A stretch of 63,995 nucleotides of DNA, filler included, from Chrysochromulina tobinii (Eukaryota): assembly GCA_001275005.1 (NCBI GenBank). It is 7 parts of 7 records of this genome, joined end to end, with 100 filler letters (N's around TTAATTAATTAA, not from the genome) between each part and the next. Parts side by side here need not be neighbours in the genome. Positions count along the whole stretch, not along the records: positions 5,941 to 22,185 come from JWZX01000807.1; 6 more parts are not named here. The stretch is one strand, 5' to 3'. A program made the position numbers and the translations under genes. The notes beneath the pieces are model-generated. The model did not search any database. It was not told the DNA's origin and worked only from the letters and a program-made list of their open reading frames with translations. Shown here piece by piece: positions 5,941-46,038 of this stretch; the first letter of the stretch is position 1; every line of letters starts with the position of its first letter.

Positions 5941-7595
5941 GGGGCTGGTGCGGGGGGGGCGGCGGCCGGGGGGAGGTACCGAATCAGAGGGGCGCCCATA
6001 TCGCGGCTCTTGGTGCGCTTGAGGGCGGGCAGGACCGCACCCTCGTTGGCGCCATGTTGGGCGCCTTGCTCTCTCCACAACGCAAGCCCTGCGCTCTCCA
6101 CAACGCCCGACACAACGCGCGCCTCTGCGGTGGGCACCGAGCCGAAGGGCGCCGTGTCGGGCGCAAAGGAGCCGCCTGCCGCGCCGTGTCGGGCGGCCGT
6201 GGCGGCGTCTTCACGCGCCTGGTGCTTGCGCAGCTGCTGGCGCTGCCGCTTGCGTTGCTCCTTGGCGCGCAGCCGCTGCTGCTTGCGCTGCTGCTTCTCG
6301 AGCGCCGTCTCGAGCAGAGCGGCCTGTCCATCCTTGGCGGCGCGCTCGATACGGCGCTCCTCGGCGCTCCTCGGCGCTTCGTCGCCGGAGGGTTCGTCAA
6401 TTGAGCCGGTTTCGTCAATTGAGCCGGAGGGTGCGTCAATTGAGCCGGAGGGTTCGTCAATGGAGCCGGAGGGTTCGTCAATGGTCTCGTCGGCGCCTCG
6501 GTGCTCGATCTCGTCCATGAGCTCGCCCTGCGCCTCCGCCTGCCCCCCTTGCCTCGCCTGCCCCCCTTGCCTCGCCTGCCCCCCTTGCCTCGCCTGCTCG
6601 AGGCTCTGGTACTCCTCAAGCACGCGCCTCGCATTCCTCAGCAGCAGCGAGCCGGGCCCCTTGTCCGAAAGCGGGCTCGTCGGGTTCGTCACGCCCTTTT
6701 TGGTCGTGGCGGCCGAGGCGGTCTGCACTAGGGGGAGGGGCGTCGTCGTGGGCGGCCCGTACGCGGCGCCGTGCAGCCGGAACCGCACGCTGACCACATC
6801 CTCGGCTGACGTGAGCAGGGGCGCCCCGACCTGCGACTCTGACGAAGTCCATTTACTTGCGGAGGCTGCTGACCAGTCGTCGTTGAGACCCAAGCGTACG
6901 GGCACCTGGACCGTGCGGAACGATCGGCGCGCTGCGTCCGCTGACGCACCACCGCTCGCGCTGCCGCTCGCGCTGCCGGTCGACGCCTGACGCGACAACG
7001 CGCGCGACGCCCCCGCCGGCGTCTTCCCCTCCCTCTCGTACGAGCCGCCCACGACGACGCCTCCGGTGTGCGCTGCCGCCGCGTCGGTTGCCGACATGCT
7101 CGCCTTCTTGGGCGGCAAGAGGGAGGAGGGGCAGCGTCCCCTGCCGGCGGGGGCGGCGTTGGCGCCGGTGAGCTCGTCTGCAGGGATGGCACCAGGCATC
7201 GCCTGGGTGGACCACTTTTTGGCCGGCTCGTTCGCCCAGCCATCGTCGAGGCCGAGCCGCACGGGGCCCGTGATCTTGCGCCCCGTGGTGCGGCGCGCCT
7301 CGTTGGCGTCGGCGTTGCTCGAGGTGTCGGCGTTGCTCGCGTTGTCGACGCTGCTCGCGGCGGGGGCCGTCGCCTCCGCCTCGCGCGTCACAGTCTCCTC
7401 TGGCGACGCCTCCTGACAGAGCTTGCTTTCGTCTCCATTCGACTCTGCCTCCTTCTCCGTCCGGCTGCGCTTGCGCTCGAGAAAGGGGATGGCACAGGTC
7501 CCCGCGTGGTGCTCGGTGAGGATGCATCCGTTGATGCCGCACATGAAGTAGCCCCCCTCTGTGGCAGGGGGCGATCCCCTCGACAGGCTGGCCAT
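5941..7595 (-). CDS. Low-complexity hypothetical protein with an N-terminal CGxxGCxLxxHHxGxC putative Zn-binding motif; 3' end truncated
   Basis: Long ORF from MASLSRG; duplicated PVRLGLxDxW motif; DEPSGSI and QARQGG repeats; runs into the gap. Confidence 0.65.
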
Positions 7596-8411
7596 GCAGC
7601 AGGTGAAAATTAGTGTGAGACGCGTGCGTTCCAGAGCCAGAGTTGGGAGAGCTCGTCTGGAAATACACTTCCTTTTCCAAATCTGGGTTTTTTGGATGGA
7701 TCGGCAAGAGTTCAACAGAAACACACCGCTCCTAAGAAACTACCCAACCCAACATTCAAGCACACTCCAAACCATGCCGACGACTGCTATGTGGGGGTTT
7801 GGGTGTGGCGGCCATGAGATTTTTGCTACATAAACTGGGGCGTGCTCAGGCGTCGTGCGTGCGTGGCTGCGTGCTTAGCGTGCGGCCCATCGGGCGCGCC
7901 CACGCTCACCCATTCGACCATTGCGAGTGGCACGCTCGCACTCACACGTTGCATGGTGGCGGGTGGTGGGGCACGTGGGCGAGGTCTCGGCGGGTCTCGC
8001 TCTCGGCGTGTACAAGCCGGGGTAAAGCCGGGGTACATTCAACAACAGTTACGGCAGCTCGGCAGGGTGCGAGCGAGGCTGCGACTTGTGGGCTGCGAAC
8101 GATCAAGTGCCCCCCTCAAAAGTCAAAACCCCCAGCCCCCAGCCCCCCGCACCCCCAGGAGCCAGGTGCGGACGCTCCCCGCCCACTTGCGCCCCCCGTG
8201 ACCGGTGACCCCCAGGAGCCCCCAACCCCCCCAGACCCGAGTTTACATGTACTAGCGATAACATGCGATAGCTTTAGCCCTACCTACGCCCCAAAACTCG
8301 AGTGGAAACCGCCGCGCCTCGAAGTGTCCGAAACGGCGAATTTGAACTCCACTGGAGGACTTCGAGTACGGCGAACGCGTGCAGCGAACGCGCACATTTC
8401 GGAATCAGCAG

Positions 8412-9806
8412 ATGAGCCGGCCAGCGATGAGCATGGCACATGTCATCTCGCCGAGCGCACGGAAGGCACGTGCGGGATCATCGACTCTCGTCGACCTGCA
8501 GCACAAGCAGGCCGAGCTGGTGTACTCGACCCTCGCCCCCATCTTCCTTCGCACGCGGACTGGGCAGGAGCCTCGCGTGACAGCCGAGGATGAGGCCCTG
8601 CTCAAGGCACAGCTTCTGGCGGGCAAGGCCGACGACGGCAGCATCAATGCGCGTATGGTCGCCGCCGAAAAGGGCGCGCAGATGGGCGGCACGATGTCGC
8701 CTAGGAGCGTGCTGGAGCCCCATCGTGAGATGACGGTCTTCAAACAGGCAGTCACCAGCAAGCTCGCCGATCCGGACTTCATCAAGAAGGTCGCGAACGA
8801 CCTATCTCAGTCCATGCTCTCAGCCTCACACCACACACATGAGCGCGCGCACAAGCGGCAAGGCCTACAGGATGGGGGCCGCGAGGAGACCTGCAGCTTC
8901 CCACAGCATGGGGGCCCACGGCCGCCACACATGATGACGAAACCCAAGTTGCGCCCCGGACTCGCCACCCTTTTGGGATCCGATGCTCCAGAATCCTCTG
9001 CAGACTCTGTGACCTTGAACGTCTCGTCCTACAAGTACGGCGCGTACACGACCATCAGCGAGCGCACTCCGAGTGCATCTTCCTCGACAACGACGGAGGC
9101 GTCGTGTTTGGCGGCCGCGACGGAGGCGGCCGTGCTGGAGCGCCTCGAGCAGCAGCGCCGCTCGACGCCGCTCGACTTGCACGCGCTCCTTGCCCACCCG
9201 GATCCTCTCTCGGTGCTCGGGGAGCGTCTCTATCAACTCATCGAGTGCCACGACGTGGCGCTGCCTGGCAAGATCACGGGCATGCTGCTCGACGGGCTGT
9301 CCTTGGACGAGCTGCACTCGTTGCTCGTGAGCGTGCCTCCCGGCGACGCAGCCGCCGCGATTGCTTCATGGATCGGCACCGCACAGCAGGTCTTGCATGA
9401 GGCCGCCGAGGGCATCGCCGCCTTTCCGTGCGAGACGATGCCAAACTCGCCGTTGAAAGGCACTGCTGCTGTCGAGGTCGAGGTGGGAGGCATTGCCGAG
9501 AACAGCGTCGTGTTGGTTGCTGCGGCGGCCGTCCACGCCGCCGCCACCGCCACCGCCGCCGCCTCGGGGGGCGCCACCGCCGCATGCGCACCCGCTGCTG
9601 ACGAAACCCTAACCGCCGCATGCGCACCCGCTGCTGACGAGTGGCGTGTCGTCGCGAGATTGCCACGCGGGCGTGCATCCAAGGGCACCGCCGCCGCCGA
9701 CCCCGCCCCCGACGCCGCCGTCGCCGCCGCTGCAACGCAGGATAGCAAGGGACATCCAGCAGCGAGGTCGCCGCGCAAGCGCAACGGCAGGAAGCAGCAG
9801 GAGTGA
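8412..9806 (+). CDS. Protein with an MLLE/PABC-like domain
   Basis: LGERLYQLIE...PGKITGMLLD...L matches the PABP C-terminal MLLE signature; no RRMs seen. Confidence 0.7.
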   Translation: MSRPAMSMAHVISPSARKARAGSSTLVDLQHKQAELVYSTLAPIFLRTRTGQEPRVTAEDEALLKAQLLAGKADDGSINARMVAAEKGAQMGGTMSPRSVLEPHREMTVFKQAVTSKLADPDFIKKVANDLSQSMLSASHHTHERAHKRQGLQDGGREETCSFPQHGGPRPPHMMTKPKLRPGLATLLGSDAPESSADSVTLNVSSYKYGAYTTISERTPSASSSTTTEASCLAAATEAAVLERLEQQRRSTPLDLHALLAHPDPLSVLGERLYQLIECHDVALPGKITGMLLDGLSLDELHSLLVSVPPGDAAAAIASWIGTAQQVLHEAAEGIAAFPCETMPNSPLKGTAAVEVEVGGIAENSVVLVAAAAVHAAATATAAASGGATAACAPAADETLTAACAPAADEWRVVARLPRGRASKGTAAADPAPDAAVAAAATQDSKGHPAARSPRKRNGRKQQE

Positions 9807-10354
9807 GCCGTTACCCGCCACGGTTTCGTCAGGCGGCGGAGAGCCGTTCCCGCCTGCCCACCTGCCACGATCGCAGCCAGTCGCCCCGCACGAGGCGGAT
9901 CGAGGCCATTACCTAATTTGGGCCATGCGACGCTGAGCATCAAGTGATCTTTCTATTTCAGGTGCCGTGTGCTACAACTAGGAACTTACTAGGAACCACG
10001 TGGCGGAACAGCACGGCACCAGGCATGCGTGCCTCGGCATGTGATCTCGCATGTGATCTCGCATCGCGCCCAAAGGCACAGAGCGCGGTGCCAAGCAGCG
10101 CGTGAGCGTGCTTCCATCCTCATTATGATTTATGTGATATGTCTCGGCACACGGACCATCCGGTGTGAATATATTGTCTACCATGCAGAGATACGCTAAA
10201 TCGACTAAGTACACATGCACGCCATTAGCGCTGTGTAGTGGACGTGCTCACAAACGAGACCTGGTATGCTTGACCGACGACTCTACAGTCTACACTCAGC
10301 TCCTCCTGTGGGTCCGGCAGACCTCACAACCCTCTGCCGTGTGTCCCTCGCTCA

Positions 10355-10855
10355 TCACAGCTCATCTTTGCCACGTCGCCATCCGTGCGCGAAGTCCGCC
10401 ACGTCGCGCATAAACTCCTTGACAAGATTCGCCTGGAATCTTCCGCGGATGTAGGGGTGTTTCTTCATGTCAGCGGTTTCTTCTATGCCGAGGATCTCAT
10501 CGACTCGGTCCTGCACAATGTTCAGCGGCCCGTCGATCATGTACTCGCGCTTGTCGAGGAGAATTGGCCCAACGCGTTTGACAAATTCGCGGAGCTTGGA
10601 GATCTGGTCGGGTCCGCCAACGTCGGGCACGTCATCAGCCCACTTCGCAAAGTCCTTCTTCGCCTCCTCGACTGTGAGGTCGCGGCCGAGCTTCTGCTTG
10701 AGCTTCCTGTAAAAGGTGAGAGCCTTGGCAGTGACATCGTTCCCGAGCTTACCGTCAGGGGTTTTCACCTTGGCTTCGTCCCATCCGGGCTCACTTGCGC
10801 CGTGCGCGGTTGACGCGAAGACTAGAAAGAAAGCCGACGCAGCCAACGTGCGCAT
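10355..10855 (-). CDS. Small ER-lumenal protein (signal peptide plus C-terminal KDEL), 166 aa
   Basis: Signal peptide MRTLAASAFFLVFASTAHG; ends GKDEL-stop. Confidence 0.85.
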   Translation of the reverse strand: MRTLAASAFFLVFASTAHGASEPGWDEAKVKTPDGKLGNDVTAKALTFYRKLKQKLGRDLTVEEAKKDFAKWADDVPDVGGPDQISKLREFVKRVGPILLDKREYMIDGPLNIVQDRVDEILGIEETADMKKHPYIRGRFQANLVKEFMRDVADFAHGWRRGKDEL

Positions 10856-11184
10856 TTCCGGAAAAGGGACGATACAGCAAGAGACTAGCCGTGAACATGT
10901 TATGAACATGTGTGAACAGTCCTCCGCGAGTAAATATGACGACAACCGGGAGTCCGGGACTGAGGGTGACGTGAGGGACCCGAAACGGCACACGCCCCGC
11001 ACGCGGTGTCCATGGGTGTCCATGTCTACCCACAGCCATCGTACCGCGTTAGCTTATTAATCTCGGACCTGTTCGAAGCTTCTCGACCGAGGACAACCGC
11101 CGGGAGCGGAGCGCTCTGTTCTCCTCGAGCGGAGTCACGGAAGAGGCTCAGATTGCTTCAGATTGCTGCCGGGTCTCAAGATTA

Positions 11185-14100
11185 TTACTCCGAGTCTCGG
11201 AAGAGTCCCGGAAGGCTCAGATTGCTGCCGAGATTGTTTGACGAGGCTGCCCTTCCTAGGAGCGCACGCCGCTGCAGCGCGCCGGTACGACGCGCGATCT
11301 CCCTCACGACCTGGTTGCGCTGATCGACGGTCAGTACCCCCTCCTGCATGGCCCAGTCGATGGCCTCGAGCGCGACGCCGTCAGAGCGTACCGATGAGCG
11401 GGAGAGCATGACCGCCTGGTTGTGATGGCTGATGGTGATCGTCATCGGCTTCTTGAGCCCAAATAAGGGTTCGAGCTCAAACGGCTCACCATCGACCTGC
11501 ATGGAGCATGCGATGAGGGAGGCCATCAGCATGCAATCAGGGAGGCCATCAGCATGCAACGAGGGAGGGTCATCAGCATGTGAGGGAGGCCATCAGCATG
11601 CAATGAGGGAGGCCATCAGCATGCAATGAGGGAGGCTGCGCATGCAACGAGGGAGGCCATCAGCATGCACGAGGGAGGGCCATCAGCATGCAACGAGGGA
11701 GGCCATCAGCATGCATGAGGGAGGCCATCGACCTGCATTGGCAAGCGCGTCGTGCCCTCCTGCGTGATGGTCACTGACGAGGCTTGGCAGAGACGGTGCG
11801 CCGATCCCTTGACAAGCTGTGTGCATGCAGACACATGCAGGCGCAGTCAGGCACACTCAGAGGCAAGCATAGGCAAACAGAGGCAATCAAGAGGCAATCA
11901 AGAGGCAATCAGACATCCTCGCAGAGAATCAGAGGCCATCATAGGCAATCGGAGGCCATCAGAGGCCATCAGAGGCCATCAGAGGCATCAGAGGCCATCA
12001 GAGGCCCAAACATCTTTCATGATAAGGCAATCAAAGGCAATCACCTGCGCGAGCCCAAGCTGCAGCACGCCCTTGATGGCGACCACCTCCAGCAGCCGAT
12101 CGTCCATCGAGGCGCTGACGAACCCTGACGAAACCAGCAGCCGATCGTCCGTCAAATGCCACGACGCGTCGCTGAAGCTCTTCGTGCGAGATCGCATCCC
12201 CCCCGCAGCTCCGCCGGAGCTCCCGCCCGCGAGATCGTTGCGAGATCGCATCCCGCCCGCAGCTCCGCCGGAGCTCCCGCCCACGAGATCGTTGCCGCAA
12301 GCGCTGCCGGTGCTTCCGCTCCGCACGTGCCTCGATGTCGATGCGCCGCCGCCGCCGCCGCCGCTGCCGCCGCTGCTGCCGTTACCCCTGCTGCTGCCGC
12401 TGCTGCTGCTGCTGCACCCAAACGGGTAGACGCCGGAGGCACTCGAAGGGCGCGGCGGCCCGAAGCCAGAGCTCACGGAGCGGCCGCGCACATCCCGTCC
12501 AAAAGCGTCATCAGCATCCGCCGCCGCCGCCGCCGCCGCTGCCGAGACTGCCGCCTCGGCGTACTCGTCGGACTGGTCGGGAGAGTCCATAGAGAGTCTT
12601 CGGTCCGTAAAGTCCATGGAGCTCGGGCGAGACATGGCGCGCGCCGACAAGTTATCCCCCGACCCCCCCATGCGGACACGCGCACCGATGGTGCTGTCTC
12701 GCCCTGCCGAGCACTCCCCTCCATCGCCCCCCTCGGGGGCCAGCTGGTGCGCAGAGGCGGTGCGGGAGGGCATCCGGGACGAGGCCTGAGAGGCACGGCC
12801 GCTCGTGGAGGCTGGGGCGGCGGACGGCGACGGGTGGACTTCCTCGTCGTCATCCCACTCACCTGTGAACGAGGGGGAAGGGGCGCCGTGGTGAGCACTC
12901 GCATGCAAGGCACGGAGGTCTCGTCGTCATCCCACTCACCTCCCCACAGGTCTGTTCCACCTGCATAGGACGCTATGTTGAGCACGATGATGCCCTCTGT
13001 GCCCTCGGGCAGCTCGTACCTGCCCAGAGGTGATCCAAGGCAATCAAGTGTTCCCATTCAATCCGAACCAATGCCATGCAATCCAATGCAATCCAATGCA
13101 ATCCAATGCTCGTACCGCTTCCCATCAGCGATCACCGTCAACTTCTTGCACACATGCTTGAAATCGCGACCATGTAGCAGCTGGCGCGCGCCGTAGCGCA
13201 GGTACATGAGCTTGTTCTTGAGGACGTTTGTGAATTGGTGCGGCTCCGACTGCCAATCAGTGGCAATCAGTGGCAATCAGTGGCAATCAGTGGCAATCAG
13301 TAGCAATCAGTAGCAATCAGTAGCAATCAGGCGCGGCTCCGACTGCCAACGATTGAGCCGTTCGAGACCTCGGTCAATGGTACTCAATGGCACTCAGCCA
13401 GGGCGCTCACTCAGTGGCACTCAGTAGCAATCAGCGGCACTCAGTGGCACTTACCTGCCGACGATTATGCCATTCAAGCGCCACGTTGGCATCCACACCT
13501 GTGGGGGGGGCGCCGTGGTGAGCACTTGCATGCTTGAGGAGCGCCACGTTGGCATCCACACCTACGCCAAGGTAAATCTGCATCGTAACCGTGACTGAAT
13601 CAGTAGCAATCAGTAGCAATCAACGGTTACCTACGCCAAGGTAATTCTGCATGATGATCTTACGAGCGGGTCGACGAGTATCACTCCCGCGCTCGGGACG
13701 ACGCTCGGGAGCCGTGATCAAGCTCTTGGCCACGTGGCTCTTGGCGACGCTCTTGGCGACGCTCTTGGCGAGGCTCTTGGCGACGCTCGGGCGGGGCGGA
13801 GGGACCGTTGCGTCCTCAAAGGCCACCTGATGAGGAACGTCATCCAGAGGCACTCAGAGGCACTCAGAGGCACTCAAGGGCGTGGTACAGTCTTCGAAGG
13901 CCACGTGGTTTAAGGCGAGCCGTTCCCTTTCGTGAGGGTCATCAGTGGTCATCGGAGGGTCATCATTAGTCATCGGAGGTTCATCAGTAGTCCTTAGAGG
14001 TCCTCAGAGGTCCTCAGAGGTCCTCAGAGGTCCTCAGACGTCCTCAGAGGTCCTCAGAGGTCCTCAGAGGTCATCAGCACACCTCCCAACGATCGAGCAG

Positions 14101-14931
14101 TGCCACTTGAGCAGAGTCAACCTCCTCGAGGAGATTGACGAAACTGCGTCCCATACGAGTGCCACCGCCCCATCCGAGCGCACGCGCAAGGTCATTCCCC
14201 GTGCCCAGCGGCAAGATGGCCACGGGCGGCGTGTACTCGAGATGTGCATTGTCCAGGAGGGAGAGCACCCAGCCTACGGTGCCATCGCCCCCACACACTA
14301 AGACGCGGAAGCGGCCGACAGTGCGGAAGGACTGGAGGGCCTGCTCGGCGTGCCCCAGCGACAAGTCCACCACCTGGTGCGCCGAGAGCAGCGCCTTGAG
14401 CTGCACGAGCGTTGCCTCGCCTTGCCGACCACCGCTGCCTCGGTTGATGAAGACGAGCAGCGGCGTGCGATCTCGCGCAACCTCCGCCGAGGGGCGATAG
14501 GTCCATGAGTTCTGCCAGAGCTGCGGCTGCAACGTCGGCGTGCGCAGCTCCGCTATGCTGTGGCGCACGCGCTGCGCGAGCGACGCGGCGCTTCGCAGCC
14601 GGAGCTTCTCCGAAGCGGCTTCGGCGCCCTTGGCTGGGGGGCTCGTGGGTGGCGTCGCCTCGCCAAAGTCGAGCAGCTGCTCGGGAAGGATGAGCCGCCA
14701 GAGGCGGGCGCGCGCCTCTTCCAGCTGCCGTGGATCAAGGTCGGGCGGCGTCGCTTGCGCGTGCATGATCGAGATGAGGTAAATCAGCGCGAGCGTGGCC
14801 GTGAGGAGTGCGATTGTCATGAGTGGCGGTGGGTCCGAGATCACCACCGGCTCGGGCTGTCGCGGCCAGGCAGCCAGGTCGGCGTGTGCAAATGGAGGGC
14901 CCACCATGCCGCCGTCCGCGAGTTCGTCCAT
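11185..14931 (-). CDS. DGK: Diacylglycerol kinase, 8 exons, ~838 aa (14931-14083, 13826-13631, 13498-13455, 13249-13116, 13019-12940, 12862-12045, 11816-11733, 11496-11185)
   Basis: Motifs PLLVFINRGSGG, GGDGTVGWVL, LPLGTGNDLAR, MQNYLGVGVDA, LNIASYAGG, DDRLLEVV and PMQVDGEP; all GT-AG introns, and phases join into one frame. Confidence 0.92.
12863..12910 (-). repeat. Shared intron 3' module TGCATGC..GCTCACCACGGCGCC-Y-rich-CACAG (representative copy, DGK)
   Basis: Other copies end at acceptors 13499, 18472, 19633, 19713, 20564, 20637, 22057 (ends AAG), 31507 and 31970. Confidence 0.9.
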
Positions 14932-15156
14932 GATGCGTGTGCAAAGCCGCCCACGCGCCGCACCAGGGACCCCCCTGGAACGCGGGACGGAGAGGAAGTT
15001 GACGGGAACACGGAAGGGCGACTTTACATGAACAGAGAGAATCATCACTCTCGAATCACGTTGCAGATGGGGATGTCTGTCTAAGAGACGGTTTCTCCTC
15101 CCGAAACCGTCCTTCCCTGCAACTGCCTTGCAACCCCAACGTCTTCGTGTAACGCC

Positions 15157-16596
15157 ATGCTAACGAGGCCAGCCTTCCTCGCGCCGCTCAACGTACCAGC
15201 CATCGCCGACGCGTGCGAGACAGTGGCATTGCCAACTCACGGGTCGCGTCGGTCACGCTCTCGGCGCCAGCGCTCCAACAAGGACAACCGAGGAAGAAGC
15301 CCGTCTTCCAAGAGCGTCAAGAGTCCGTGCGCATCTCCGCAGCAGCTCATGAGCCCCGGAAGCCCCACGCCCAAAAGCCCGTCTGCCAAGAGCGTCAAGA
15401 GTCCTTGCACTGGCGCATTTCCGCAGCAGATCATGAGCTCCGGAAGTCCCACGCCCAAGTTCACCGCTAGCAACATTGGCGTACGTCTGGTGGGTGCCGA
15501 GGCGGCCTCCCTCCACACGCATGCTGCTGCCCTCGAGCGCAAGGCGGCGCGTCTCCAGCAGCGGTCCGACCAGATGGCATCGCCAGCTCGCCCGACGGTG
15601 CACGAGCTCGTCAACGAATGGCAGCGTCTGAAGCAGCGGTCGGACGAAATGATGGTCATGCATGAGCACTTGGGCACTTGGATCTCGTCGATCTCGTCGG
15701 TCCAGTCACTTCGGACCAGGGGGGATTACTCTCTCCAGCCGCATGCCGATGCACGTGAGCTGCCCCCTACGGCAGTTGAGGAAGAGCCCGAGAGTGCCGA
15801 GGCAGAGGATGCCGACGATGAGGAGTCCGCCGTGCAGATGCATCTCACGCTGACCATCCCAAACGAATGCTCAGCGCAGGATGCCGACGATGCAGGGGCA
15901 GGGCCGCGCCGCCAGTGGCAGCCGCCCAGCTGCCCGCACGCTGCCCCCAAATCCGCTCGCCGCGGTAGCCCTGCGAAGGCCGGTGAGGATGAGCGCCGTG
16001 CCGAGCGTCGTGCAGAGCGTCGTGACGAGCATCGTGACGAACCCCGAAACGAAGCCAAGGATGAGCGCCGTGACGAGCGCTATGGCGCCCACTCGCAGCT
16101 CCTTGCGCTCCAACGTCAACTGATCCGCCGTGTCGATGCCCTGGAGGGGCGCTTTTGCACCGCCCCCTGGACGCCACCCCTCGCAGCCGCCTCACCGGCA
16201 CCGGCTGCCCTAGCAGATGCCTCACCGACCGGCGCGATGGGGATGCTCACCCCCTCGTACGGCGATGGTGCCAGCTTTGGCGTCAGCGTCGAGAGCTCGC
16301 TCGATCTGACTCCGGGTGCCCGGGACGGCGCCCATGATCGCGCCCAGGACGGCGTCGAGAGCTCGCTCGATCTGACTCCGGTGGCGCACGGGACGGCGCC
16401 CGGGACGGCGCCCAGGACGGCGCCGCGCACGGTTGCTGGGCGGCAGGAGCGAATCCGACGCGCATGCAAGCTCGAGGGGATCTCGTGCGCGAAGTGGATC
16501 TCGAGAGCGATCACGCTCAGATTCGATCTCGAGGCAGCGCTGCTAAACGCGCCCATCATGGCGCCTGCTTGCACGCTCGAGCGCGGCGTGCTGTAA
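15157..16596 (+). CDS. Hypothetical low-complexity/coiled-coil protein with internal duplications
   Basis: 479-aa ORF; SPSxKSVKSPC twice and VESSLDLTP twice. Confidence 0.6.
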   Translation: MLTRPAFLAPLNVPAIADACETVALPTHGSRRSRSRRQRSNKDNRGRSPSSKSVKSPCASPQQLMSPGSPTPKSPSAKSVKSPCTGAFPQQIMSSGSPTPKFTASNIGVRLVGAEAASLHTHAAALERKAARLQQRSDQMASPARPTVHELVNEWQRLKQRSDEMMVMHEHLGTWISSISSVQSLRTRGDYSLQPHADARELPPTAVEEEPESAEAEDADDEESAVQMHLTLTIPNECSAQDADDAGAGPRRQWQPPSCPHAAPKSARRGSPAKAGEDERRAERRAERRDEHRDEPRNEAKDERRDERYGAHSQLLALQRQLIRRVDALEGRFCTAPWTPPLAAASPAPAALADASPTGAMGMLTPSYGDGASFGVSVESSLDLTPGARDGAHDRAQDGVESSLDLTPVAHGTAPGTAPRTAPRTVAGRQERIRRACKLEGISCAKWISRAITLRFDLEAALLNAPIMAPACTLERGVL

Positions 16597-17159
16597 TCAC
16601 GCTGTGTGGCGCGTGTGACCTGAGAATGACCTGAGATATTGACTCACGGTGTGCGACGCCGACACGGAGTTTGGAGTTTCTGTCGCCATCGGAAACGGGT
16701 ACATCTAGATCTACGATCTAGTCGGCTGTGGTGGAAACGCCGACCTATACGTCCATGCTATACGAATACGTCCTACCGACAACCGAGGCGCCCGCGGGCG
16801 CGGCCGGCGAGCGGCGTCCGGTCTCTAGTACCGTCTACTGTTAACGTCTACTGTACACCGATCACCGTGTACCTGTACGTCGCCGACGACGTACGGGACG
16901 ACCAGGACCACGAGCGCCTTGCGCGCAGCTCGCACCTCTACTTTTGTAAACGATTTAAGGCGGAGGGATCATCAGCGCACAGCGGTACGTTCACAGTGTC
17001 TATGACTCGCGCGTCTTCGTAACGTCTTCGCTTGACTATATGTGAGTATGATTCTCGGTGAACATCTTCGAGCATGCTTTGTACTGGTGCAGCGGGGCGC
17101 GCGTGCACACGACATCAGCTGTAAACTCGTGCGGCACGCCGGAACATATTATGATCGGA

Positions 17160-20100
17160 TTACATTGAATTCAGGAGGACGATGACCACAACTACCACGA
17201 GAACTACGCAGCACACGCCGCAGCACATGGCATACTTCTTGAAGAAGAAGAATGGGTTGAACAGATTGAAGTCGATGCCCAGCCCGTCGAAGAACGAGGG
17301 GCGCACCGGGTTCGGAAGGAACGGGTGTTGGTTTGGCGGGTCACGTCCCTGGCCCACAGGGCGCTGGATCGCCTCGTATCTCGGGATGAGCTCGATCGTG
17401 AGGCGCACCGTGCCCTGATTGCCCATGTAATTCGGGTGCGTCGTCTGCACGAGCACGTTCTCCCTCTTCACACCGCCGCCGCGCCGCAGCGCCAGTTCAC
17501 AGATGGTCTTGAGCGTCAGTTGCGCCTCGCCGATGGCGTCGTTGGACGAGAGGATGTCGGCGTCCCAGAGCTGTATGAAGAGCCTCGGCGACTTTTCGGG
17601 CAGTGCCATCGGCCAAACCATCCGCCAAAAGAACTCCGCATCTGATGAGGGAGGTCATCAAGAGGCCATCAAGAGGTGATCCAGAGGCAATCAAGAGGCG
17701 ATCAAGAGGCGATCAAGAGGCGATCAAGAGGCAATCAAGAGGCGATCCAGAGGCAATCAAGAGGCGATCAAGGCAGCACGAACCGCCAGGCGATCGGTGG
17801 TGCACGTCCGTCCTGAGCATCGAATAGGGCTGGTGGCCGTGCGGTGTGATGGCTACGAAGACGTCCGACGTGCCACCGCCGCCGAAGAAGGACTCGTCCC
17901 GCGCTTGGACGTCGATCGCATCCCACACGATGACACGCAGCTCGAACATGTCGGTGGTCGGTGGCTCGATCGGGACCATCGGCTGGGCGATCGCGTACCT
18001 GATGAGAGAGGCACTCAAAGCTGATGAGTGAGGCACACAGAGCTGATGAGGGAGGCAATCAGAGCTCATCGGCTGGGCGATCGCCTACTTCTTCTCCAGG
18101 ATCTCAATCTTGCACACGATGAAGCCCTGGAAGAGGGGCAGAGGGGCATGCGCAGGGGGGGTGAGTGGCAATCAAGAGCAATCCATCGACGGAGTGGCAA
18201 TCAATAGTAATCAATAGCAATCCAGAGCAATCAAGAGCAATCCATCGACTGAGTGGCATGGACCGGGGGGCTCAGCGGCCACCAAGAGCAACCACGTGGC
18301 ACTCCATCTCACCTGCGCGTTCGTATTGCCAGGGTTGGTGAGCGGCCGCATCTCCTTCGGCAGCGCGTCGTTCTGCTGCTTGGTCTTCCACGTCTCAGAA
18401 AAGTAGCGGTCCTCGAGGTCGATGACCGTCTTGCCCAGCAGCGATTCGCTCAGCAGCTGGTAGTCCCATACCTGTGGGGGCGGGCGCCGTGGTGAGCGCG
18501 TGCATGCTGGGGGCTGGGATCGAATCCCTCCTCGGAATCACACACCTCGAGATGTAGCCGAGATTGGGTCATCAGAGGTCATCAGAGGTCATCAGCACAC
18601 CTCGAGATGTAGCCGAGATTGGCCGGGCAGGATCGCCGACAGCTCGAAGGATTGGTAGAAATCGGGCTCGAGCGAGGGCGGCAGCGCAATGTCGCGCGTG
18701 GTGCGCTCCTGACCCTCGACGTTGTAGACCTTTAGGAAGGGCTCGGGCTCTTTTCCACCCGCCCTCGGGGCGAGTGACGTGGCGCCATACACATGCACGC
18801 GCACGCGGCACGGCTTCTCGGCGAAGAGCTTACGCAGGTTGGCCGGAGGGTCCTCTTTGAGAAAGAGCTTGAGCTCCTCATCCCCCTCATACCTGATGAG
18901 GGAAGCCATCAGAGCTGATGAGGGAGGCCATCAGAGCTGATGAGGGAGGCCATCAGAGCTGATGAGGGAGGCCATCAGAGGTCATCAGAGGCAATCAGAG
19001 CTTGAGCTCCTCATCCCCCTCATACCTGATGAGGGAGGCCATCAGAGCTGATGAGGGAGGCCATCAGAGGCAATCAGAGCTTGAGCTCCTCATCCCCCTC
19101 ATACCTGATGAGGGAGGCCATCAGAGGTCATCCGAGGCCATCCGAGGCCATCCGAGGCAATCAGAGGCCATCCGAGGTCATCCGAGGTCATCCGAGGTCA
19201 TCAGCAGTCATCCGAGGTCATCCGAGGTCATCCGAGGTCATCCGAGGTTATCCGAGGTCGTCCGAGGTCATCAGCAGCGCTCGTACTTGATGACGCGCAG
19301 CTTCATCTTGAGCAGCCCCTGGGAGCGCGCAGGCCTCCCGAATTTGATCGGGAATAAGTCGCGCGCAGTCTGCAGCCCCTTGGCGAGAAGGTTCTGCTTA
19401 TACGAGGACGTGGTCGACTCGGGTGCTTTCATCGAGAGAGGGAACAATTGGAAGGGCAGATCATCTTCGAGAAGCTTCTCCATAGGATAGGGCAAGATCT
19501 CCTCCTCTGCCGCACGCGCTTCTTCGTCCTCCTCCTCTTCGCCCCCACCCTCGTCCGGTCCATCGCCTGGCGCCGGCGCGGCGGCCGCGCCCTCCTGCAG
19601 CTCCGGCATCTCGATCGTGCGTGGCCCCAAACCTGTGGGGAGAGGGAGCGCCGTGGTGAGCATCCATTGCATGCGTGCAGCTCCGGCATCTCGATCGTGC
19701 GTGGCCCCAAACCTGTGGGGAGAGGGAGCGCCGTGGTGAGCATCAGTTGCATGCGTACCTGGCACCGGCGCGACATTCTTTCCCGCCGAGACACTGAGCG
19801 CCTTTGAGCCGTTGGTGGCGCGCGCGACCGACGAGAGGAAGAGCTCATCAAGCTTCTCCTGCGTGGACAGAGGCGGAATGCGAGCACTCAGTGGCTGAAT
19901 GCGAGCACTTAGTGGCCATCAGAGGCCATCAGCGGCCCTCAGCGGCCCTCAGAGGCCATCAGAGGCCATCAGAGGCCATCAGAGGCCATCAGAGGCCATC
20001 AGAGGCCATCAGAGGCCATCAGAGGCCATCAGAGGCCATCAGAGGTCATCAAAGGCGCTCCCTACCTCGTTAGGCGACTTGACGATTTGGAAATGGCCAC

Positions 20101-22166
20101 CCTGCACCTTCTCCTTTTTGATCTTCTCGTCCCGCTCCTTCTCCTTCTTCTGCGCCTCCTCCTCCGCCTCCTTCATCTTGCGAGCCTTGGCCTCTTTGAT
20201 CTTCGCCTGCTCTTCGGGCATGTGCTCGAGCAGGTTGATGGCCGTGATGCCCATCACCGGATCCCAGTCATCGCCCACAAACGGGATGATCTTGCCTGAT
20301 GGCAAGGGCAATCAATGGCAATCAATGGCGATCACGAGCTTGCCTGCTTCGCGCACGCGTACGCCCATCCACCCTGATGGCAATGGCCATCAATGGCAAT
20401 CAATGGCCATCAATGGCCATCAATGGCCATCAATGGCCATCAATGGCGAGCGCAAGCTTGCCTGCTTCGCGCACGCGTACGCCCATCCACGGTGTGTAGA
20501 GCTGCGGCTGCGTCGGCAGTAAGACCTTAAAGTATCGGGTCTCGAGGATGTTGATGTCCGTACCTGTGGGGAGAGGGCGCCGTGGTGAGCACTTGCATGC
20601 AAGGCCTCCGGGTCTCGAGGATGTTGATGTCCGTACCTGTGGGGAGAGGGCGCCGTGGTGAGCACTTGCATGCAAGGCCTCCGGGTCTCGAGGATGTTGA
20701 TGTCCGTACCCGTCCGAAGTTGCGTCCCCGTGATGGACGAGCCGTGGTCGGGGATGCGCCATTCACGCTCCTCGGCTTGCTCATCGCCGTACTCAAACTC
20801 AACGTATCTGATGAGGGGGGCAATCAATGATGTCATCAGCGGCCATCAGTGGCCATCAGTGGCCATCCGAGGCCATCAGAAGCCCATAGAACGTACGGCG
20901 AAGTGAGGAAGCAATCAGAAGCAATCAGAAGCAATCAGAAGCCATCCGATGCCATCAGAAGCCAATAGAACGTACGGCGAAGTGAGGAAGCAATCAGAAG
21001 CAATCAGAAGCCATCCGAAGCCCATAGAACGTACGGTGAAGTGAGGAAGACGGGAGCCCCGAGGACCTCTCGCGGTGCAATCACGGGGTAATCACGGGGT
21101 AATCACGGGGTAATCTCGTACGGCGAAGTGAGGAAGACGGGAGCCCCGAGGACCTCTCGCGGTGGCACGTCGCGACAGCCAACCAGCTGCACCTCGATCA
21201 CGTACGGCCGCATCTCGGGCCGCAGATAGCCCAGTGCACTCACGCCCTCCGTCAGATGGTACTTCGAGAGCTTCGCCGCCTGAGAGCCGCATGCACACAG
21301 TGGCACTCAGTGGGCACTCAGAGGGCACTCAGAGGGCACTCAGCGGGCACTCAGCGGGCACTCAGCGGGCACTCAGAGAGCACTCAGAGAGCACTCAGAG
21401 GGCACTCAGAGGGCACTCAGTGGCACTCAGTGGGGCAATTAGAGACGCAATCAGCGCTCCTCACCTGGGAGGAGAGGTCGACGATGGCAGCACTCTTCGT
21501 GCCATCCGGTGCGTCAAGGCTCTTGGGTGGCTGGTAAGCCCGCAGCTCGAAGGAGCAGAGAAGGAACCCGACGGGGGTCGGGTCATCATCCCCGCCAGCA
21601 TCGAAGTCGAGCTCGGCAAACTTGGGATCGTACAACGGCATCCATGTGGGCTCTCCCGCGCTCCTGATGAGGGGGGGGCAATCAGATCTCATCAGAGGTC
21701 ATCATCAGATGCAATCAACGGCATCCATGCGGGCTCTCCCGCGCTCCTGCTGTAGAAGACCGACACGTACTTAGTGTACGGCCATCAGACGCAATCAGGC
21801 GCAATCAGGCGCAATCAGGCGCAATCAGACGCAATCAGACGCAATCAGACGCAATCCGTCGCCATCAGCAGCGCAAGTACTTGTTGTAGAAGACCGACAC
21901 GTTTTTGGTGTACGGGCCGCTCGGGGCTAATGTACGCCCCATGACAGTGTCACTTGGAGCGAGGTCCTGAAGCGCAGAGAGGCCAAAAGCGGCGCCCGCG
22001 TCGTAGACGCAGACCGAGACCTTTGAGGCGAACGTGAGCTCGCCCGGGAGATGCACCTTGAGGGAGGGGAGGGGGGGTGGCGCCGTGATGAGCACATGCA
22101 TGCTGGGAGATACACCTTGAGGGCGAGCTCCCCGGGAGATACACCTTGAGGGCGAGCTGCTGGTAC
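17160..22166 (-). CDS. Ferlin-family multi-C2-domain tail-anchored protein, 3' part, at least 14 exons, 5' end truncated
   Basis: Motifs LGKTVIDLEDRYFS, FELRVIVWD, TDVHHRS..FFWRMVWP, IQLWDADILSSNDAIGE, GQGRDPPN..LPNPVRP and a C-terminal TM helix. Introns 17642-17783, 17999-18088, 18127-18312, 18472-18600, 18893-19286, 19633-19758, 19859-20065, 20296-20461 (GC-AG), 20564-20709, 20808-21121, 21280-21464, 21664-21880 and 22057-22144 give a consistent frame. Confidence 0.88.
20564..20709 (-). repeat. Intron made of two identical 73-nt units (28-nt downstream-exon copy plus 45-nt 3' module)
   Basis: Exact tandem repeat; removing it restores ...LRTG|TDINILETRYF... Confidence 0.9.
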
Positions 22167-22185
22167 CTGAGGGAGGGGAGGGGAG

Positions 22186-22285: not shown

Positions 22286-25200
22286 TGGTTCGAGCGGCCG
22301 CGCCCCCGCCGGCCGCGCCCCCGCCGGCCGCGCCCCCGCCGGCCGCGCCGCCGCCGCCGTCCGTGCCCATGCCGCCGCCGTCCGTGCCCATGCCGCGGGC
22401 CTCGTGCCCATGCCTACCTATGGCACCACCGTCCGACTCTGCCTTCAGCGGAACTGCCTTCGGTTTCATGGCTGGGGGCAATGGCGGTGGCGGCAGCGCC
22501 CCTGTGTCACCGTCGACCGCTGTCGGCGACTCTGCCTTCGGCTTCATCGCCGCCGCTGAGCCGTCACCGCCGCTGGTTTCGGCCTTCGGCTTTTTTGATG
22601 GCGGTGGCGGCAGCGCCCAGGTATCGCCGTTGGGCGGTGGCGGTTCTGCGTTCGGCTTCATAGATGCTCAGCGTGCGGCGGCTATCGCTGCGAGCCTCGA
22701 CATCTCCAGCCCTGTAAACCAAACCTTACCACCACCTTTGCAATTCTTACCACCCGCGCAATCGCCACCTATGGGGCCGTCACTGTGTGTGTGCTGAGTG
22801 ATCATCATACGTGTGCGTGTGTGTGTGCGCAGCAGCAGCAGTACGGTCAATACGGCGGCGGCGGCGGGCAGTACGGCCAGCCGCAGCAGCCGCAGTTCGC
22901 CGCCGAGCAGTACGGTCCATACGGCGGCGGCGGCGGGCAGTACGGCCAGCCGCAGCAGCCGCAGTTCGCCGCCGAGCAGTACGGTCAATACGGCGGCGGC
23001 GGCGGGCAGTACGGCCAGCCGCAGCAGCCGCAGTTCGCCCAGCCGGAGAGCAGTACGGTCAACACGGCGGCGGCGGCGGGCAGTACGGCCAGCCGCAGCA
23101 GCCGCAGGTTCGCCCAGCCGGCAACCCACGAGGTGCGCCCGATTCGCGTGCAATCAGAGGTCATCAGATGTATTCAGAGACCCTCAGCAGGCCTCACCGG
23201 CCTCAGTGGCACTCAGAGGCTATCAGAGGTCATCAAAATCAATCAGAGACCATCATTGGCGATCAGTGGCCATCAGTAGCCATCAATTGCAATCAGTGGC
23301 AATCAAGAAGGCACCGGGTTCCAAGATTGCCCCGATGGCCACGACGCGTGCTGAGCGTGCGCCGTGTGCGTGTGCGTGTGCGCGTGTTCGCAGCACTTGC
23401 AGGCGACGCCTGGGCAGTCAGCGGCGGCTGCGGCCAAGGCGGCGGCGGACAAGGCGGCGGCGGCGGCAAAGGCGCAGCAAGAGGCAGACGACGCTCAGCT
23501 TGTTGCAGCTCTCGCTGCGAGCCTCGCCATCTCCGGCCCTGTCCCACCACCTCCCCCGCCATCTCTAGCCGGACCGAGGCTGGTCATGTTGCCACTTTCT
23601 TGCCAAACGGCGGAGCGCCTCGTAGTCAACACGGATCCTCTCATGCCCCAGAGGACCCCTTCGGAGCGTATAGCAGCAGACCTCGGCATTCCAGTTGAGG
23701 ACGTACGGGCAAGCCTCGTCGCGGAGCAGGTACGGGAGGACCGCCTCGCAGTTGAGGACGTACGAGCGAGCCTCGTCGCAGTCGAGCACGGCGGGAGTGG
23801 CCCTGAGTGCGGAATGGCCTCTTCCGCCAGCGTGAGGCCGAGCTCGGAAATGTACGACGACATGGACCTCGAGGACCTGAAAGAGCTCGCTGGAAAACGT
23901 GGCATCAAAGTGGTAGGCAAAGGCTGGGCCACATGCTGCCCGCCGAACGGGAACAAAGCGGACATCATAAAGGCACTTGAAGCAGAGCCGCCTGCGCCAC
24001 CCGCGCCTCCGCCGCCGCGACCTAAGCCCCCGCCGCCGCGACCTAAGCCCCCGTCGCTCTGGGAGCCTCCGCCGCCTCCGCCACCCGCATCACCGCCGCC
24101 GAAGAAGAGGGCGTCCGTCGTGCACCTGAGCGAGCACCAGGCGCTCCCGAAACTCGTGGCGCTCGACAAGCCGCTCGTCGACGCGCTCCGCTCGAGCGCC
24201 GTCAAGCTCGTCGACGCCGACCGCATCCGCGACGGCACCATTGCAAAGATCATGCGCCGGCAGGACCTCGAACAGTTCGAGCGCGAGCGCGGAGTGCGGC
24301 TCTTCTTGTCGCCCGAGCGCTCGATCGAGGTGCACGGCAGCTACGAGCGCGAGATCGCCTCGCTGACGTACGGATGGGACACCCCCGACGGCGACGACCC
24401 GACGGGCGAGTACCTGGCCGCGGTCCGCCGGTACCTGCTGAGCGCCTTGGGCGAACACGTGAAAGGCGTCTTCTGGGACTGCCCCTGCCTGCCGCAGGAG
24501 CCGCGCAGCGCGAGCGAAGAGGCGGTGTTCGGCGAGGCGCTCGGCGTGATGGCGCTCACGTACGCGTCGGTGCTCTCGACGACGGTGATCCGGCACACCC
24601 GAGTCCCCGCCCGCCCCGCGTGTCTCGACGGGGTGGTCGTGGTTTACGGCGGCGCGGTGACCGAGCAAGACGTGCGCAGCGGGCTCGCCAGCCACGGCGC
24701 GCTCGCAAGCGTGTGGCGCGACGAGAAGGTCAACCGGTGGCGCGCGCGGTTCCAGAGCCACGCCGAGGCCGAGCGCGCGGCGGCCAGAGGGCAGGCGATT
24801 GTCAACGGCGCGACGCGCCTGCAGACGCTCCACGTCCCGCGCCCGTATGGCGCGCGCGGATGGTGCTGTGAGGAGACCGGCGTGGCCACCGAAGGGGTCG
24901 CTCAGAGTGCCTACTTTCCGAAGCTGAAGGCGATCCTCGACCGGCTGCCGCCCAAGTTGGTCGACATTGACGGCGCGGCGCCCGAGGCGGCGCGCGAGCA
25001 GTACGGTGGGAGCGAGGGCAGGGCACCTCGCATCGAGCGCGTGCGCTCGAGCATCCGGTCGGCGGCCTTTTCGAGCGAGGCCGACCGTGCGAAGGTCGTG
25101 AAGCTGTTCGATGACTACATCACCAAGATTGCCATCGCGATGGCGGGCTCGGGCGAGGGGCAGGCCGGCGAGTACGTCGGCGAGAGGAATGCGGCCGGGG

Positions 25201-43815: not shown

Positions 43816-44054
43816 GGGTGCGTGACCGTATCGTCGCTCGGTCTCCTCGCCCGGTTCTAGGGCGCGGCGAGCGCGGCGACGCGCCTTGCGAGGATCGACA
43901 CGTAGAGTCTCGACGAAACATGTGTGAAATCCTCCAAAAGTTTTCATTCCTAGTAAAAGGACCACGAGATGTGAAGACTTCCTTCATAGTTACATGTATT
44001 CCAGAGAAACGCCCGATTACAAGCCTTGATTACAAGTGTTCCGTTCTTGCCTAC

Positions 44055-44195
44055 CGGTAAAAAGACACCGGGGGGAGCCGGGACACACACGACACGGGAC
44101 ACACGGACAGCCGAACCTCACAACCATCCCAACCCACCAACGCACCCGCGCGACCGCGAAACCCCGGACCATCCGAATTTTGCGTGCCGGTACGG
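44055..44195 (+). mobile_element. Partial copy of the CGGTAAAAAGACACCGGGGGGAGCCGGG MITE-like family
   Basis: Similar to the left part of 2600-2990. Confidence 0.6.
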
Positions 44196-44243
44196 TATAG
44201 GATTGCGCGATTCCCCCCCAGCACGTTTGCGGCTCCGAACCAC

Positions 44244-45233
44244 ATGGCGAACCGCACAGAGTACCTCGTAGAAGCATGCCTCTTCTCGGAAAACACCATC
44301 TTCATTCCCGAATCCTGTGCAGCGTGCTGCGGCTGTTACTCAGATAGCCTCTACTGCTGCTTTGTAAGCCGTAGCAAGAGGTGCATCTTCAAGGGCCATG
44401 ATGCATACCCCAGCCTTGTCGGGCACCGTGACGACGTCATCTGCATGAGCCAGGGCTCGTCCTACTTCGTGAAGCCGCTCTGCCTCACGGGCGAGAAGCC
44501 TGTGTGCATCGACGTTTCGTCAGGGTGTTGTTTCTCCAACCGCTACTCCTTCCCGCAGAAGAAAGAGGTGGTCTCCAAGATGAGGTACGCAGAATGCGGC
44601 TGCCAGATCTGCGAGGGCGGGGAGTGCGCACCGAAGTGCTGCACCACCGACGTGAAGCCCATCCAGTCGACGGCCTTCGGCGGCGTCGGCGTGCCCATGC
44701 ACAAGGTCAAGATCAACGAAGAGTACATCCTCTGCGCTGCCTGTTGCTGCATGACGACGATGTTCATTCCGGAGACGGACGCGGACGCGCATGGCGTCGA
44801 GGATCTTACCCGTTGCCTCTGCTGTGAGGAGGACATCAAGATTTCTATGGCTCCCGAGGCTCCGACGGACTACGCAGTCTATATTAACAACGTCTATCAA
44901 TTCGCTTGCATCTCGCCGACGACGTGTTGCAAGGGCACGAGACGAGTTTCCTGCATGATGAACAAGTACGCGTTCCCGTGCGATGACGAGGTGCCGTTTT
45001 CGATCGCGTGCTGCGGCCTCGTGCTCGTCGGTGAGAGCGCCAAGTTCAAGTCGCCCGCGCCCTTCCGCCCGAGCTCGGCCTCTCTCGTGGGAGGGGTGGA
45101 GTCGTCGTCGTCGAAGGGGGAGTACCTGCCATCTAATCTGGGGTCGAGCTTCATGTCGCAGCAGCACGGTGTCCCCGTCGCCGTCGCCGTCCCCATCAAT
45201 GGCGCGCCGGAGTCGACTGAGATGGAGCGCTAA
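44244..45233 (+). CDS. Cys-rich protein of unknown function, copy 1 (329 aa)
   Basis: Intronless ORF; near-identical paralog at 47731. Confidence 0.85.
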   Translation: MANRTEYLVEACLFSENTIFIPESCAACCGCYSDSLYCCFVSRSKRCIFKGHDAYPSLVGHRDDVICMSQGSSYFVKPLCLTGEKPVCIDVSSGCCFSNRYSFPQKKEVVSKMRYAECGCQICEGGECAPKCCTTDVKPIQSTAFGGVGVPMHKVKINEEYILCAACCCMTTMFIPETDADAHGVEDLTRCLCCEEDIKISMAPEAPTDYAVYINNVYQFACISPTTCCKGTRRVSCMMNKYAFPCDDEVPFSIACCGLVLVGESAKFKSPAPFRPSSASLVGGVESSSSKGEYLPSNLGSSFMSQQHGVPVAVAVPINGAPESTEMER

Positions 45234-46038
45234 ACCGCTCAACCAGCGAAAGCAGCGGGCGTGCCAGCGGCCCAACAGGTCAACGGGTCGACAGGAGATA
45301 TGTGTGACTCAGACGACAGAGCTCCTTGCGGGGCGGGCGCTGGGCGGGTCGAGCTGGCGGCTCCAAGGAGCTTGCATGGGAGGCCGGTGCGGTACTGTGT
45401 GGAGCGTGTGTTTGTGTAGTGAGGCGTGCGCGGGGCGGTGCGGCGCACGCGACGGCGCTGTCGTCGGCCGAGCCGCGAGCGCGAGGCGCATATTCCAATT
45501 TCCATGATATGCGGGCGAGCCGATGCCGCATCGGGGCCGCTCAACGGGGGCCCCGGCGGTGGCAGCGCGGGGGCGGCTTCGGTGGTCTCGTGTCGAGTCC
45601 TGGTGGAACGGATTTCTATTAAATGGTCAAAGACCGATTTCGTCTATCTGGTACATTCGTCGCATGTCGTGTGCCGCAGGCGCACGGCAGCCTGAGCGGC
45701 CGTTGGGACGCCATGTCGTCCCAGCGCGCCGTCGCGAGCGCGTGGAGCGCTGACGAGCCCGAGTCCGGAGGCTCCGCGTCGGCGTGCGCGTCGGCGTGTC
45801 GCGGCACGGGGCAGAGGACACTGGTGCCGACGACGCGGCGGATGCCCGACGGCGCGGGACGTGCGGCCCAATGAAGGTCTTGGGGGACGGGGCGACGTCT
45901 TGGGCGTTACCGTTGCTTCGGAGGCACCCCGGGGAATCCCCCGAGGTTACTCCTCACGAGCGCACAACGCCCAAGACGGCACCCCGGGGAATTCCCCGAG
46001 GTTACTCCTCGCGAGCGCACTCGACATGCGCATTTTGG

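Follow-up and report, generated by a model that had tools for sequence, protein, structure and literature searches.

Why should the introns of a few genes in the haptophyte alga Chrysochromulina tobinii be filled with arrays of a 10-11-nt unit that run almost entirely in one direction? The question was raised by a stretch of 63,995 nucleotides (the window), made of contigs strung together with N spacers. The finding concerns positions 5941-22185, which hold a diacylglycerol kinase gene and a ferlin-like gene, and the gene for divinyl reductase (DVR), which lies on a different contig. The original prediction described the intron filler as sense-oriented arrays of branch-point-like motifs with stops in all three frames, providing redundant branch points and, through nonsense-mediated decay (NMD), a fail-safe. 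Our results show that the array observation is mostly right, and this part is probably known in kind already. In addition we observed an X-insert-X architecture, in which an insert is enclosed by two copies (X) of exon sequence, splicing that makes precise use of the outermost sites, empty sites at two loci, and differences in length and copy number between strains. We consider it reasonably probable that the arrays are the filler of young introns, which arose by duplication of 12-60 nt of exon with an intron-type insert of 35-60 nt between the copies, and the intron-making process is likely still active. On this reading the underlying process is a new form of intron gain; gain by tandem duplication and by break repair is already known.

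Many introns combine exon copies with recurrent inserts

The 22 introns, named D1-D7 (kinase gene), F1-F13 (ferlin-like gene) and V1-V2 (DVR gene), were placed by hand by protein homology. They were studied together with 135 metagenome loci (~700 kb including overlaps, de-duplicated by their flanks, numbered with L), which were fetched by the motif of cassette A, described below. Pattern scans gave 0, 1 and 0 loci in viral contigs and 0 loci in genome contigs, and the sole viral-contig match (L001) was left out of every count. This contig, although labelled viral, ends as haptophyte sequence with cassette A (L001:4200-4554) and is probably chimeric.

Of the 22 window introns, 11 contain a stretch of 12 nt or more that exactly repeats their own flanking exon (null 0/262). 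As a description, filler is therefore incomplete. Three types of insert recur: the 10-11-nt array, cassette B (an array followed by CCTCATCAG) and cassette A (GCATGC..TGCTCACCACGGCGCC..CCCCACAG). Cassette A is ~45 nt long and was found at 116 distinct acceptors, window copies included, with the terminus TCCCCACAG in 80 of them. The A of a branch-like GCTCAC within it mostly falls between -26 and -30. The left end of the cassette is sharp: GC is found in 98-99% and conservation is gone past ~3 nt, which ruled out a longer, 5'-truncated master. The exon after the cassette opens with GT in 98/116 acceptors. Upstream of the cassette a 12-44-nt copy of the start of the downstream exon was found in 79/116 introns (null 2/1500); 72 of these 79 copies begin with GT, and the implied intron is 57-96 nt in 75. 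Intron sequence is accordingly shared by unrelated genes, at the 116 cassette-A and 75 terminal cassette-B acceptors, and in the same 79/116 the similarity stops short of the 5' boundary, the first 12-44 nt being the locus-specific exon copy. Near the stop codon of a gene shared by L009 and L037, a truncated cassette A with direct repeats spanning the stop lies in sense orientation, despite splicing not being needed there.

The other inserts showed the same arrangement. A copy of the downstream exon accompanied 28 of the 75 terminal cassette-B acceptors (null 3/600); an initial count of 56/122 was dropped, since array units raised its null to 111/1500, and the terminal acceptors were used instead. 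In 40 of 102 donor-plus-array starts the upstream sequence recurred after the start as a 15-60-nt copy (null 2/500). An unbiased search for exact direct repeats of at least 18 nt, spaced by 40-200 nt, returned 367 pairs, of which 145 enclosed an array or cassette, as compared to 8.8% of random windows. Pure X-array-X units (exon copy, array, exon copy) numbered 39, and the non-exon insert in them measures 34-105 nt. In D7, L004 and L054 the two exon copies can between them provide both splice sites. Copies of the spliced exon-exon junction lie inside F1, F2, D2 and D3, which would fit either two stacked events or copying off an intron-free template. Cassette B pairs with itself in a hairpin of 7 pairs (z -2.1; 19105-19126) that sets the branch-like motif against the acceptor, and its AG end may have been formed by snap-back copying.

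Spliced RNA and strain comparison

Removal of the 22 introns gave open reading frames (ORFs) of 839, 872 and 404 codons for the kinase, ferlin and DVR genes, with a terminal stop only. RNA contigs, in two runs, bridged 12 of the 13 ferlin introns (F2-F13), and the skips (217, 185, 314, 146, 166, 207, 126, 394, 129, 186, 90 and 142 nt) match the predicted lengths. At all 12 the outermost splice sites are used, including F9, where RNA contig X12 joins at the outermost acceptor. RNA support for F1 is one loose contig end that continues into the upstream exon, and nothing more. DNA contigs span the junction copy of F2 and the F11-F12 region with zero differences, and the ferlin orthologue L046 has the same copies; the exon copies are therefore not assembly artefacts.

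Sites resembling a ratchet, with an internal acceptor followed by a donor (AG|GT), occur in F5, F8, F9 and D2. In F5, F8 and F9 internal AG|GT acceptors identical to the used one are bypassed in mature RNA, which makes them candidates for recursive splicing or for strict exon definition. Alternative acceptor use, considered for the skips of 182 and 48 nt in RNA contig X14, was rejected as both lie inside duplicated exon copies; the 182-nt skip falls wholly inside a 29-nt copy, so that its placement, from contigs only, is ambiguous. Duplicated acceptors and junction copies of this kind mislead gene callers, and annotation of such genes calls for caution.

Five orthologous pairs were aligned, and two revealed empty sites. 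L046 is identical to the window gene in 965 of 984 exon letters and F1 is missing from it. The empty site of L046 encodes V-Y, in agreement with the copy at the start of F1 and with homolog P0121. V-H is encoded by the exon of the window gene and by its RNA, so the exon-side copy at F1 is the derived one. The second case is an 81-nt intron in L092 composed of a perfect 33-nt repeat and cassette A, where L013 and L044 have a single-copy empty site (DNA only). Introns shared between strains vary in how many units and how many stacked acceptor-plus-exon copies they hold, with lengths in the window and L046 of 217 vs 358 nt (F2), 314 vs 198 nt (F4) and 146 vs 73 nt (F5). Compared to L009, L037 gained X-B-X-B-X at an existing donor, where B is cassette B minus its final G, so an insertion need not create an acceptor.

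Arrays: orientation, period and unit

The prediction that the arrays are intronic and sense-oriented was borne out in the window and in the related loci. In the 3,899 nt of the window introns 143 family units are sense and 3 antisense, while the remaining 59,307 nt hold 40 units, on both strands. Of 286 related-locus arrays with a period of 10-11 or 20-23, 213 could be oriented and 73 could not; 164 of the 213 had no scorable coding flanks, which left 49 for a codon model of strand that was correct in 61/61 scorable held-out tests (110 tried). The model placed 46 of the 49 in sense orientation. Array strand also agreed with that of the nearest cassette A in 144/151 cases at <2 kb and in 19/46 at >4 kb; for TGA-free ATCTC arrays within 1.7 kb, a small sample, agreement was 6/9. 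Among arrays of at least 3 copies in the related loci, periods of 10 (204 arrays) and 11 (39) prevail, and other periods that are not multiples of three are scarce (7, 2 arrays; 8, 3; 13, 7; 14, 6).

The density of YAG, the acceptor motif, is 4.1/kb on the sense strand of the arrays and 68.7/kb on the antisense strand. This 17-fold load is the simpler explanation of polarity, which may have arisen by selection against antisense YAG; a transcription-linked template may be another source. Sense polarity holds nearly throughout, but a degenerate array at 23150-23306 is antisense within an inferred + strand intron. That array has 14 YAG, and the gene may be broken, as an in-frame TAG occurs near 25322 in the MORN-repeat ORF downstream.

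Other details of the prediction stood in part. A shared branch-like motif was seen, as YTRAY, in 75% of 1,270 units, a figure that is partly circular because an anchor of A and then T or G was used to find the units, while the arrays at 49257-49618 and 51027-51230 are free of both TGA and CURAY. Of seven introns listed as ending alike, six end in CCTCATCAG, but the one at 17999 ends in TCTCATCAG. Stops in all three frames were present in 181 of 195 oriented related-locus arrays, whereas F1, F5, F8 and D5 have neither an array nor an in-frame stop. Units of the CTGAGTGCC type that start with G equal the consensus donors GTGAGT, GTAAGT and GCGAGT (13454, 21464, 62272 and L023), so arrays may provide 5' splice sites besides branch points.

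A repeated element at 48827-51300 (89% match in L011:3601-3955) bears a separate family of GATAC/GTATC arrays with 10-11-nt units. One of these lies in a likely - strand intron (~49237-49676), and another (51027-51230), with both orientations, follows a + strand ORF. A Pfam match was absent for both ORFs of the element.

A model for the origin of the introns

How could an exon duplication become an intron? We propose that the first exon copy would supply the GT donor, that the AG acceptor would come from the cassette or from the second exon copy, and that the insert would contribute the branch point and bring the intron to its minimum length (65-95 nt). Splicing would then act as a filter that leaves sense, spliceable events, as an antisense array is rich in YAG. 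In older introns, repeated events at existing junctions together with slippage would pile up arrays, acceptors and junction copies. The most likely chemistry would be repair of a staggered break, with an existing intron copy, of which there are hundreds, serving in DNA or RNA form as the template for the insertion. Break repair is favoured since a single footprint covers unrelated inserts and truncated cassettes alike.

Several points weigh against this model. The enzyme, template and intermediate were not found in a search short of the whole genome, and Rfam gave no match on the window. The excess of junction microhomology is modest (averages of 0.9 and 1.2 nt, as compared to 0.35), and most junctions have none. 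Cassette pairs within 3 kb are no closer in sequence overall (p=0.43) and units are common to 18 of 204 local pairs vs 4.9%, so local copying as a general rule is unsupported. The 11 window introns that lack an exact exon copy of at least 12 nt may be old introns that were colonised later. YAG|GY lies within X in just 6 of the 39 pure X-array-X units, where ~2 are expected, with X ending in YAG in 5 more. F1 resembles a multi-step local rearrangement rather than a single clean insertion, and precise intron loss can also yield empty sites. Furthermore, loci fetched by cassette A are biased toward intron-rich genes.

A bolder version, which we hold to be rather unlikely, is that a dedicated polymerase or reverse transcriptase that uses a template writes arrays and cassettes into staggered breaks of transcribed genes, and is active today. 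If true, such intron-writing repair would make any exon duplication of 15-60 nt spliceable, and might explain the 10-11-nt intron repeats of haptophytes generally. In Emiliania huxleyi, Read et al. (in 2013) reportedly found intronic tandem repeats of 10-11 bp with a strand bias, said to have different units and no tie to intron birth. Our model gives the haptophyte repeats a testable origin. The footprint is frequent, young, polymorphic among close strains and precisely spliced, which makes rates and mechanism measurable in a culturable alga.

Relation to known modes of intron gain

For most new introns the origin is untraced (PMC3443670). The introners of Symbiodinium and Polarella bring their own 3' splice site, and the target-site duplication furnishes the 5' one (bioRxiv 10.1101/2020.10.14.339549, 10.1101/2022.06.06.494994). 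The introns described here are similar in that sequence is common to unrelated genes, the duplicated exon provides one splice site, the mRNA is unchanged and the introns are young. They differ in the duplication, which is 12-60 nt, variable and ~1/3-1/2 of the intron where the published ones are fixed at 3-8 nt, and in having no inverted ends and several types of insert, bare arrays included. Presence-absence with a clean empty site, as expected of introners, was found for F1 (against L046) and L092 (against L013 and L044). Thus the process is introner-like, yet it fails two defining introner tests, as neither similarity at both boundaries nor a short fixed duplication or inverted repeats were found.

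It is conceivable, though in our judgement doubtful, that cassettes A and B are non-autonomous introner-like elements moved by a retroelement or transposase with long, variable target-site duplications, the arrays being tails or later expansions. The sharp left end and recurrent terminus of cassette A, the L092 insertion with its perfect repeat and empty site, and the way in which the published introners obtain their two splice sites would all fit such elements. Against this, direct repeats of this kind also surround truncated cassettes that lack AG, and bare arrays built from many types of unit, cassette A has no inverted ends and no stable fold (z +1.1), the duplications are unlike the published fixed ones, and a search that was not genome-wide found no mobiliser. 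A tRNA-derived SINE was considered as well, on the strength of a resemblance only.

The largest introner screen dropped low-complexity families and demanded similarity no farther than 10 intron bases from each end; its supplement row for Chrysochromulina tobinii gives 0 families. By these two rules the screen would miss array introns, and since introns that are part locus-specific copy and part low complexity fall outside it, this mode of gain may be uncounted. The Gozashti tables list family 5 of a Chrysochromulina metagenome-assembled genome, with a 4-bp duplication and its own 5' site, and Emiliania fam24, with 5 copies and '10bp terminal direct repeats', which carries a 3' site and co-opts the 5' site. 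The present introns resemble these haptophyte introners in lineage and in an intron length of ~70 nt, but differ from family 5 in the 4-bp duplication and the 5' site that it carries. Fam24 may be related to them, as compared by description only, its rows being without sequence. The motifs of the cassettes and arrays were not found in the searched introner supplement files (part of PMC12130899 and PMC9860276).

Introns can also be gained by tandem genomic duplication of an exon segment that contains AGGT (PMC3443670). As there, two exon copies can give both splice sites (D7, L004, L054); here, in contrast, the copy is too short for an intron and the shared insert adds length and branch point, and the non-exon insert of the pure X-array-X units departs from an intron made purely of exon copy. 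In Daphnia pulex, introns are gained by repair of staggered double-strand breaks with repeats of 4-12 bp (PMC4202315). Here too a direct repeat of the exon end was found at the opposite intron end, introns are polymorphic for presence, and young introns grow by repeated events. However, the present repeats are longer (12-60 nt) and a few shared inserts bring splice signals, whereas the Daphnia inserts are of untraced origin. A literature search, with subscription papers and some supplements beyond its reach, found no account of the X-insert-X architecture, and the excerpts of PMC4580454 and PMC12480563 hold nothing about it.

De novo synthesis, selection and slippage

The original prediction also speculated that the arrays reflect reiterative synthesis from a short template, an idea that gains weight from the insert-like placement of arrays between direct repeats. 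Broken ends would first be extended de novo, in 10-nt units, by a telomerase-like enzyme with a short template, and completion of the duplication would follow. The pure X-array-X units, the dominance of period 10 and the related yet variable units of single polarity are in line with this. We nevertheless regard it as unlikely, as at least 15 top units exceed the output of one template, the repeat-free cassette A has the same architecture, the YAG load already accounts for polarity, and Rfam offered no candidate RNA in the window.

Could selection instead be what maintains the arrays, both for redundancy in branch points and as an NMD fail-safe when an intron is retained? The last array unit is a plausible branch point: in 52 of 75 acceptors with an array plus CCTCATCAG the last YTRAY adenosine is at -17, with lesser clusters near -27 and -37, and in 11 of the 39 pure X-array-X units, all 11 having a usable YAG, the sole YTRAY lies in the array (-19 to -47). 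Against selection, many arrays are at the donor end, distant from the acceptor. The fail-safe as a cause was not supported. In-frame stops occur in 18 of 22 window introns as compared to 16.9 after base shuffling, and among the 18 introns that have an array the excess is modest (18/18, ~14.7 expected). Of the cassette-A sister introns 44/79 are free of stops in every frame, and they have no deficit of lengths divisible by three (28/26/25 by length modulo 3, n=79). With stops near the shuffled level and stop-free sister introns without such a deficit, a fail-safe is not needed as a cause, and three-frame stops are mostly a by-product of a unit that contains TGA and has a period of 10. The three-frame stops and the branch-point spacing do speak for selection, but F8 is spliced although its length is divisible by three and it has no in-frame stop, periods of 7, 8, 13 and 14 would serve equally yet are rare, and strains differ freely in unit number. 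Taken together, this makes selection very improbable as the origin of the arrays.

Hardly credible is that ordinary minisatellites and slippage duplicated the splice sites of old introns without any intron birth: slippage is a clear source of extra acceptor-plus-exon copies (F2, F5 and F9 against L046) and about half of the window introns have no end copies, but it cannot set a genome-wide cassette between locus-specific repeats, and it leaves the empty-site sequence that survives at the intron start unexplained and is contradicted by F1 and L092 unless both are losses.

Gene models and other features of the window

The named best protein matches of the genes on 5941-22185 and of the DVR gene are all from haptophytes (Pleurochrysis, Prymnesium and Diacronema). 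The coordinates of genes and introns are listed in Table 1.

Table 1. Genes and introns of the window, with the layout of each intron.
Feature	Position	Strand	Description
Diacylglycerol kinase gene	11184-14931	-	8 exons, 7 introns; RNA contigs end at 11488 and 14080
Ferlin-like C2 protein gene, 3' part	17160-22185	-	cut by contig end at 22185; 13 introns visible
Divinyl reductase (DVR) gene	61303-62794	+	protein homology; 2 introns
F1	22057-22144	-	88 nt: copy of downstream exon start, spliced-junction copy, cassette A; array and stop both absent; missing in L046
F2	21664-21880	-	217 nt: array, ~63-nt copy of spliced exon-exon junction (~21717-21779), array, CCTCATCAG
F3	21280-21464	-	185 nt: array of 11-nt CTGAGTGCC-type units
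F4	20808-21121	-	314 nt: arrays alternating with copies of upstream exon end (longest exact match 40 nt); L046 version 198 nt
F5	20564-20709	-	146 nt: unit of 28-nt downstream-exon copy plus cassette A, present twice; once in L046 (73 nt)
F6	20296-20461	-	166 nt, GC donor: array, 29-nt upstream-exon copy, array
F7	19859-20065	-	207 nt: CTGATGGCCT array
F8	19633-19758	-	126 nt, divisible by three, no in-frame stop: two cassettes A on either side of a 37-nt downstream-exon copy
F9	18893-19286	-	394 nt: array, 7 CCTCATCAG acceptors, two 29-nt downstream-exon copies
F10	18472-18600	-	129 nt: array, 22-nt upstream-exon copy, variant cassette A
F11	18127-18312	-	186 nt: array, degenerate
F12	17999-18088	-	90 nt: downstream-exon copy (18 nt exact), then 3 cassette-B units
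F13	17642-17783	-	142 nt: 11-nt TTGATCGCCTC array, then cassette B
D1	13827-14082	-	256 nt: arrays, degenerate copy of downstream exon, CCTCATCAG
D2	13499-13630	-	132 nt: array, copy of spliced junction (~13540-13583), cassette A
D3	13250-13454	-	205 nt: array, degenerate copy of spliced junction (~13330-13363), array
D4	13020-13115	-	96 nt: end repeat of 8 nt, TTGGATTGCA array
D5	12863-12939	-	77 nt: 20-nt downstream-exon copy, then cassette A; no array
D6	11817-12044	-	228 nt: array begins at donor
D7	11497-11732	-	236 nt: hybrid 23-nt units between 14-nt direct repeats that span AG|GT
V1	62272-62358	+	87 nt, GC donor: array, degenerate upstream-exon copy
V2	62469-62660	+	192 nt: CTAATTGCCCT array, then CCTCATCAG
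Putative cassette-A intron	31507-31585	-	79 nt; 13-nt downstream-exon copy at its start
Putative cassette-A intron	31970-32052	-	83 nt; 39-nt downstream-exon copy, one mismatch, at its start
Inferred intron with degenerate antisense array	23133-23393	+	frame continuity; counter-example to sense polarity

The distribution of introns is clustered, as three genes carry 7, at least 13 and 2 and most genes of the window are intron-less; a 5-kb gene has only two, both at its 3' end and 460 nt apart. A recurring element end (ACCGGGGGG(G)AGCCGGGAC...), possibly that of a small transposon, lies upstream of several genes (2560-2750, 44050-44180, 55480-55620 and 60780-60890). Fragments of retroelement-like ORFs occupy 58567-60540 on the - strand, at the contig start upstream of the DVR gene. 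Finally, two close paralogues of an intron-less, cysteine-rich gene are arranged in tandem at 44240-45235 and 47730-48720.

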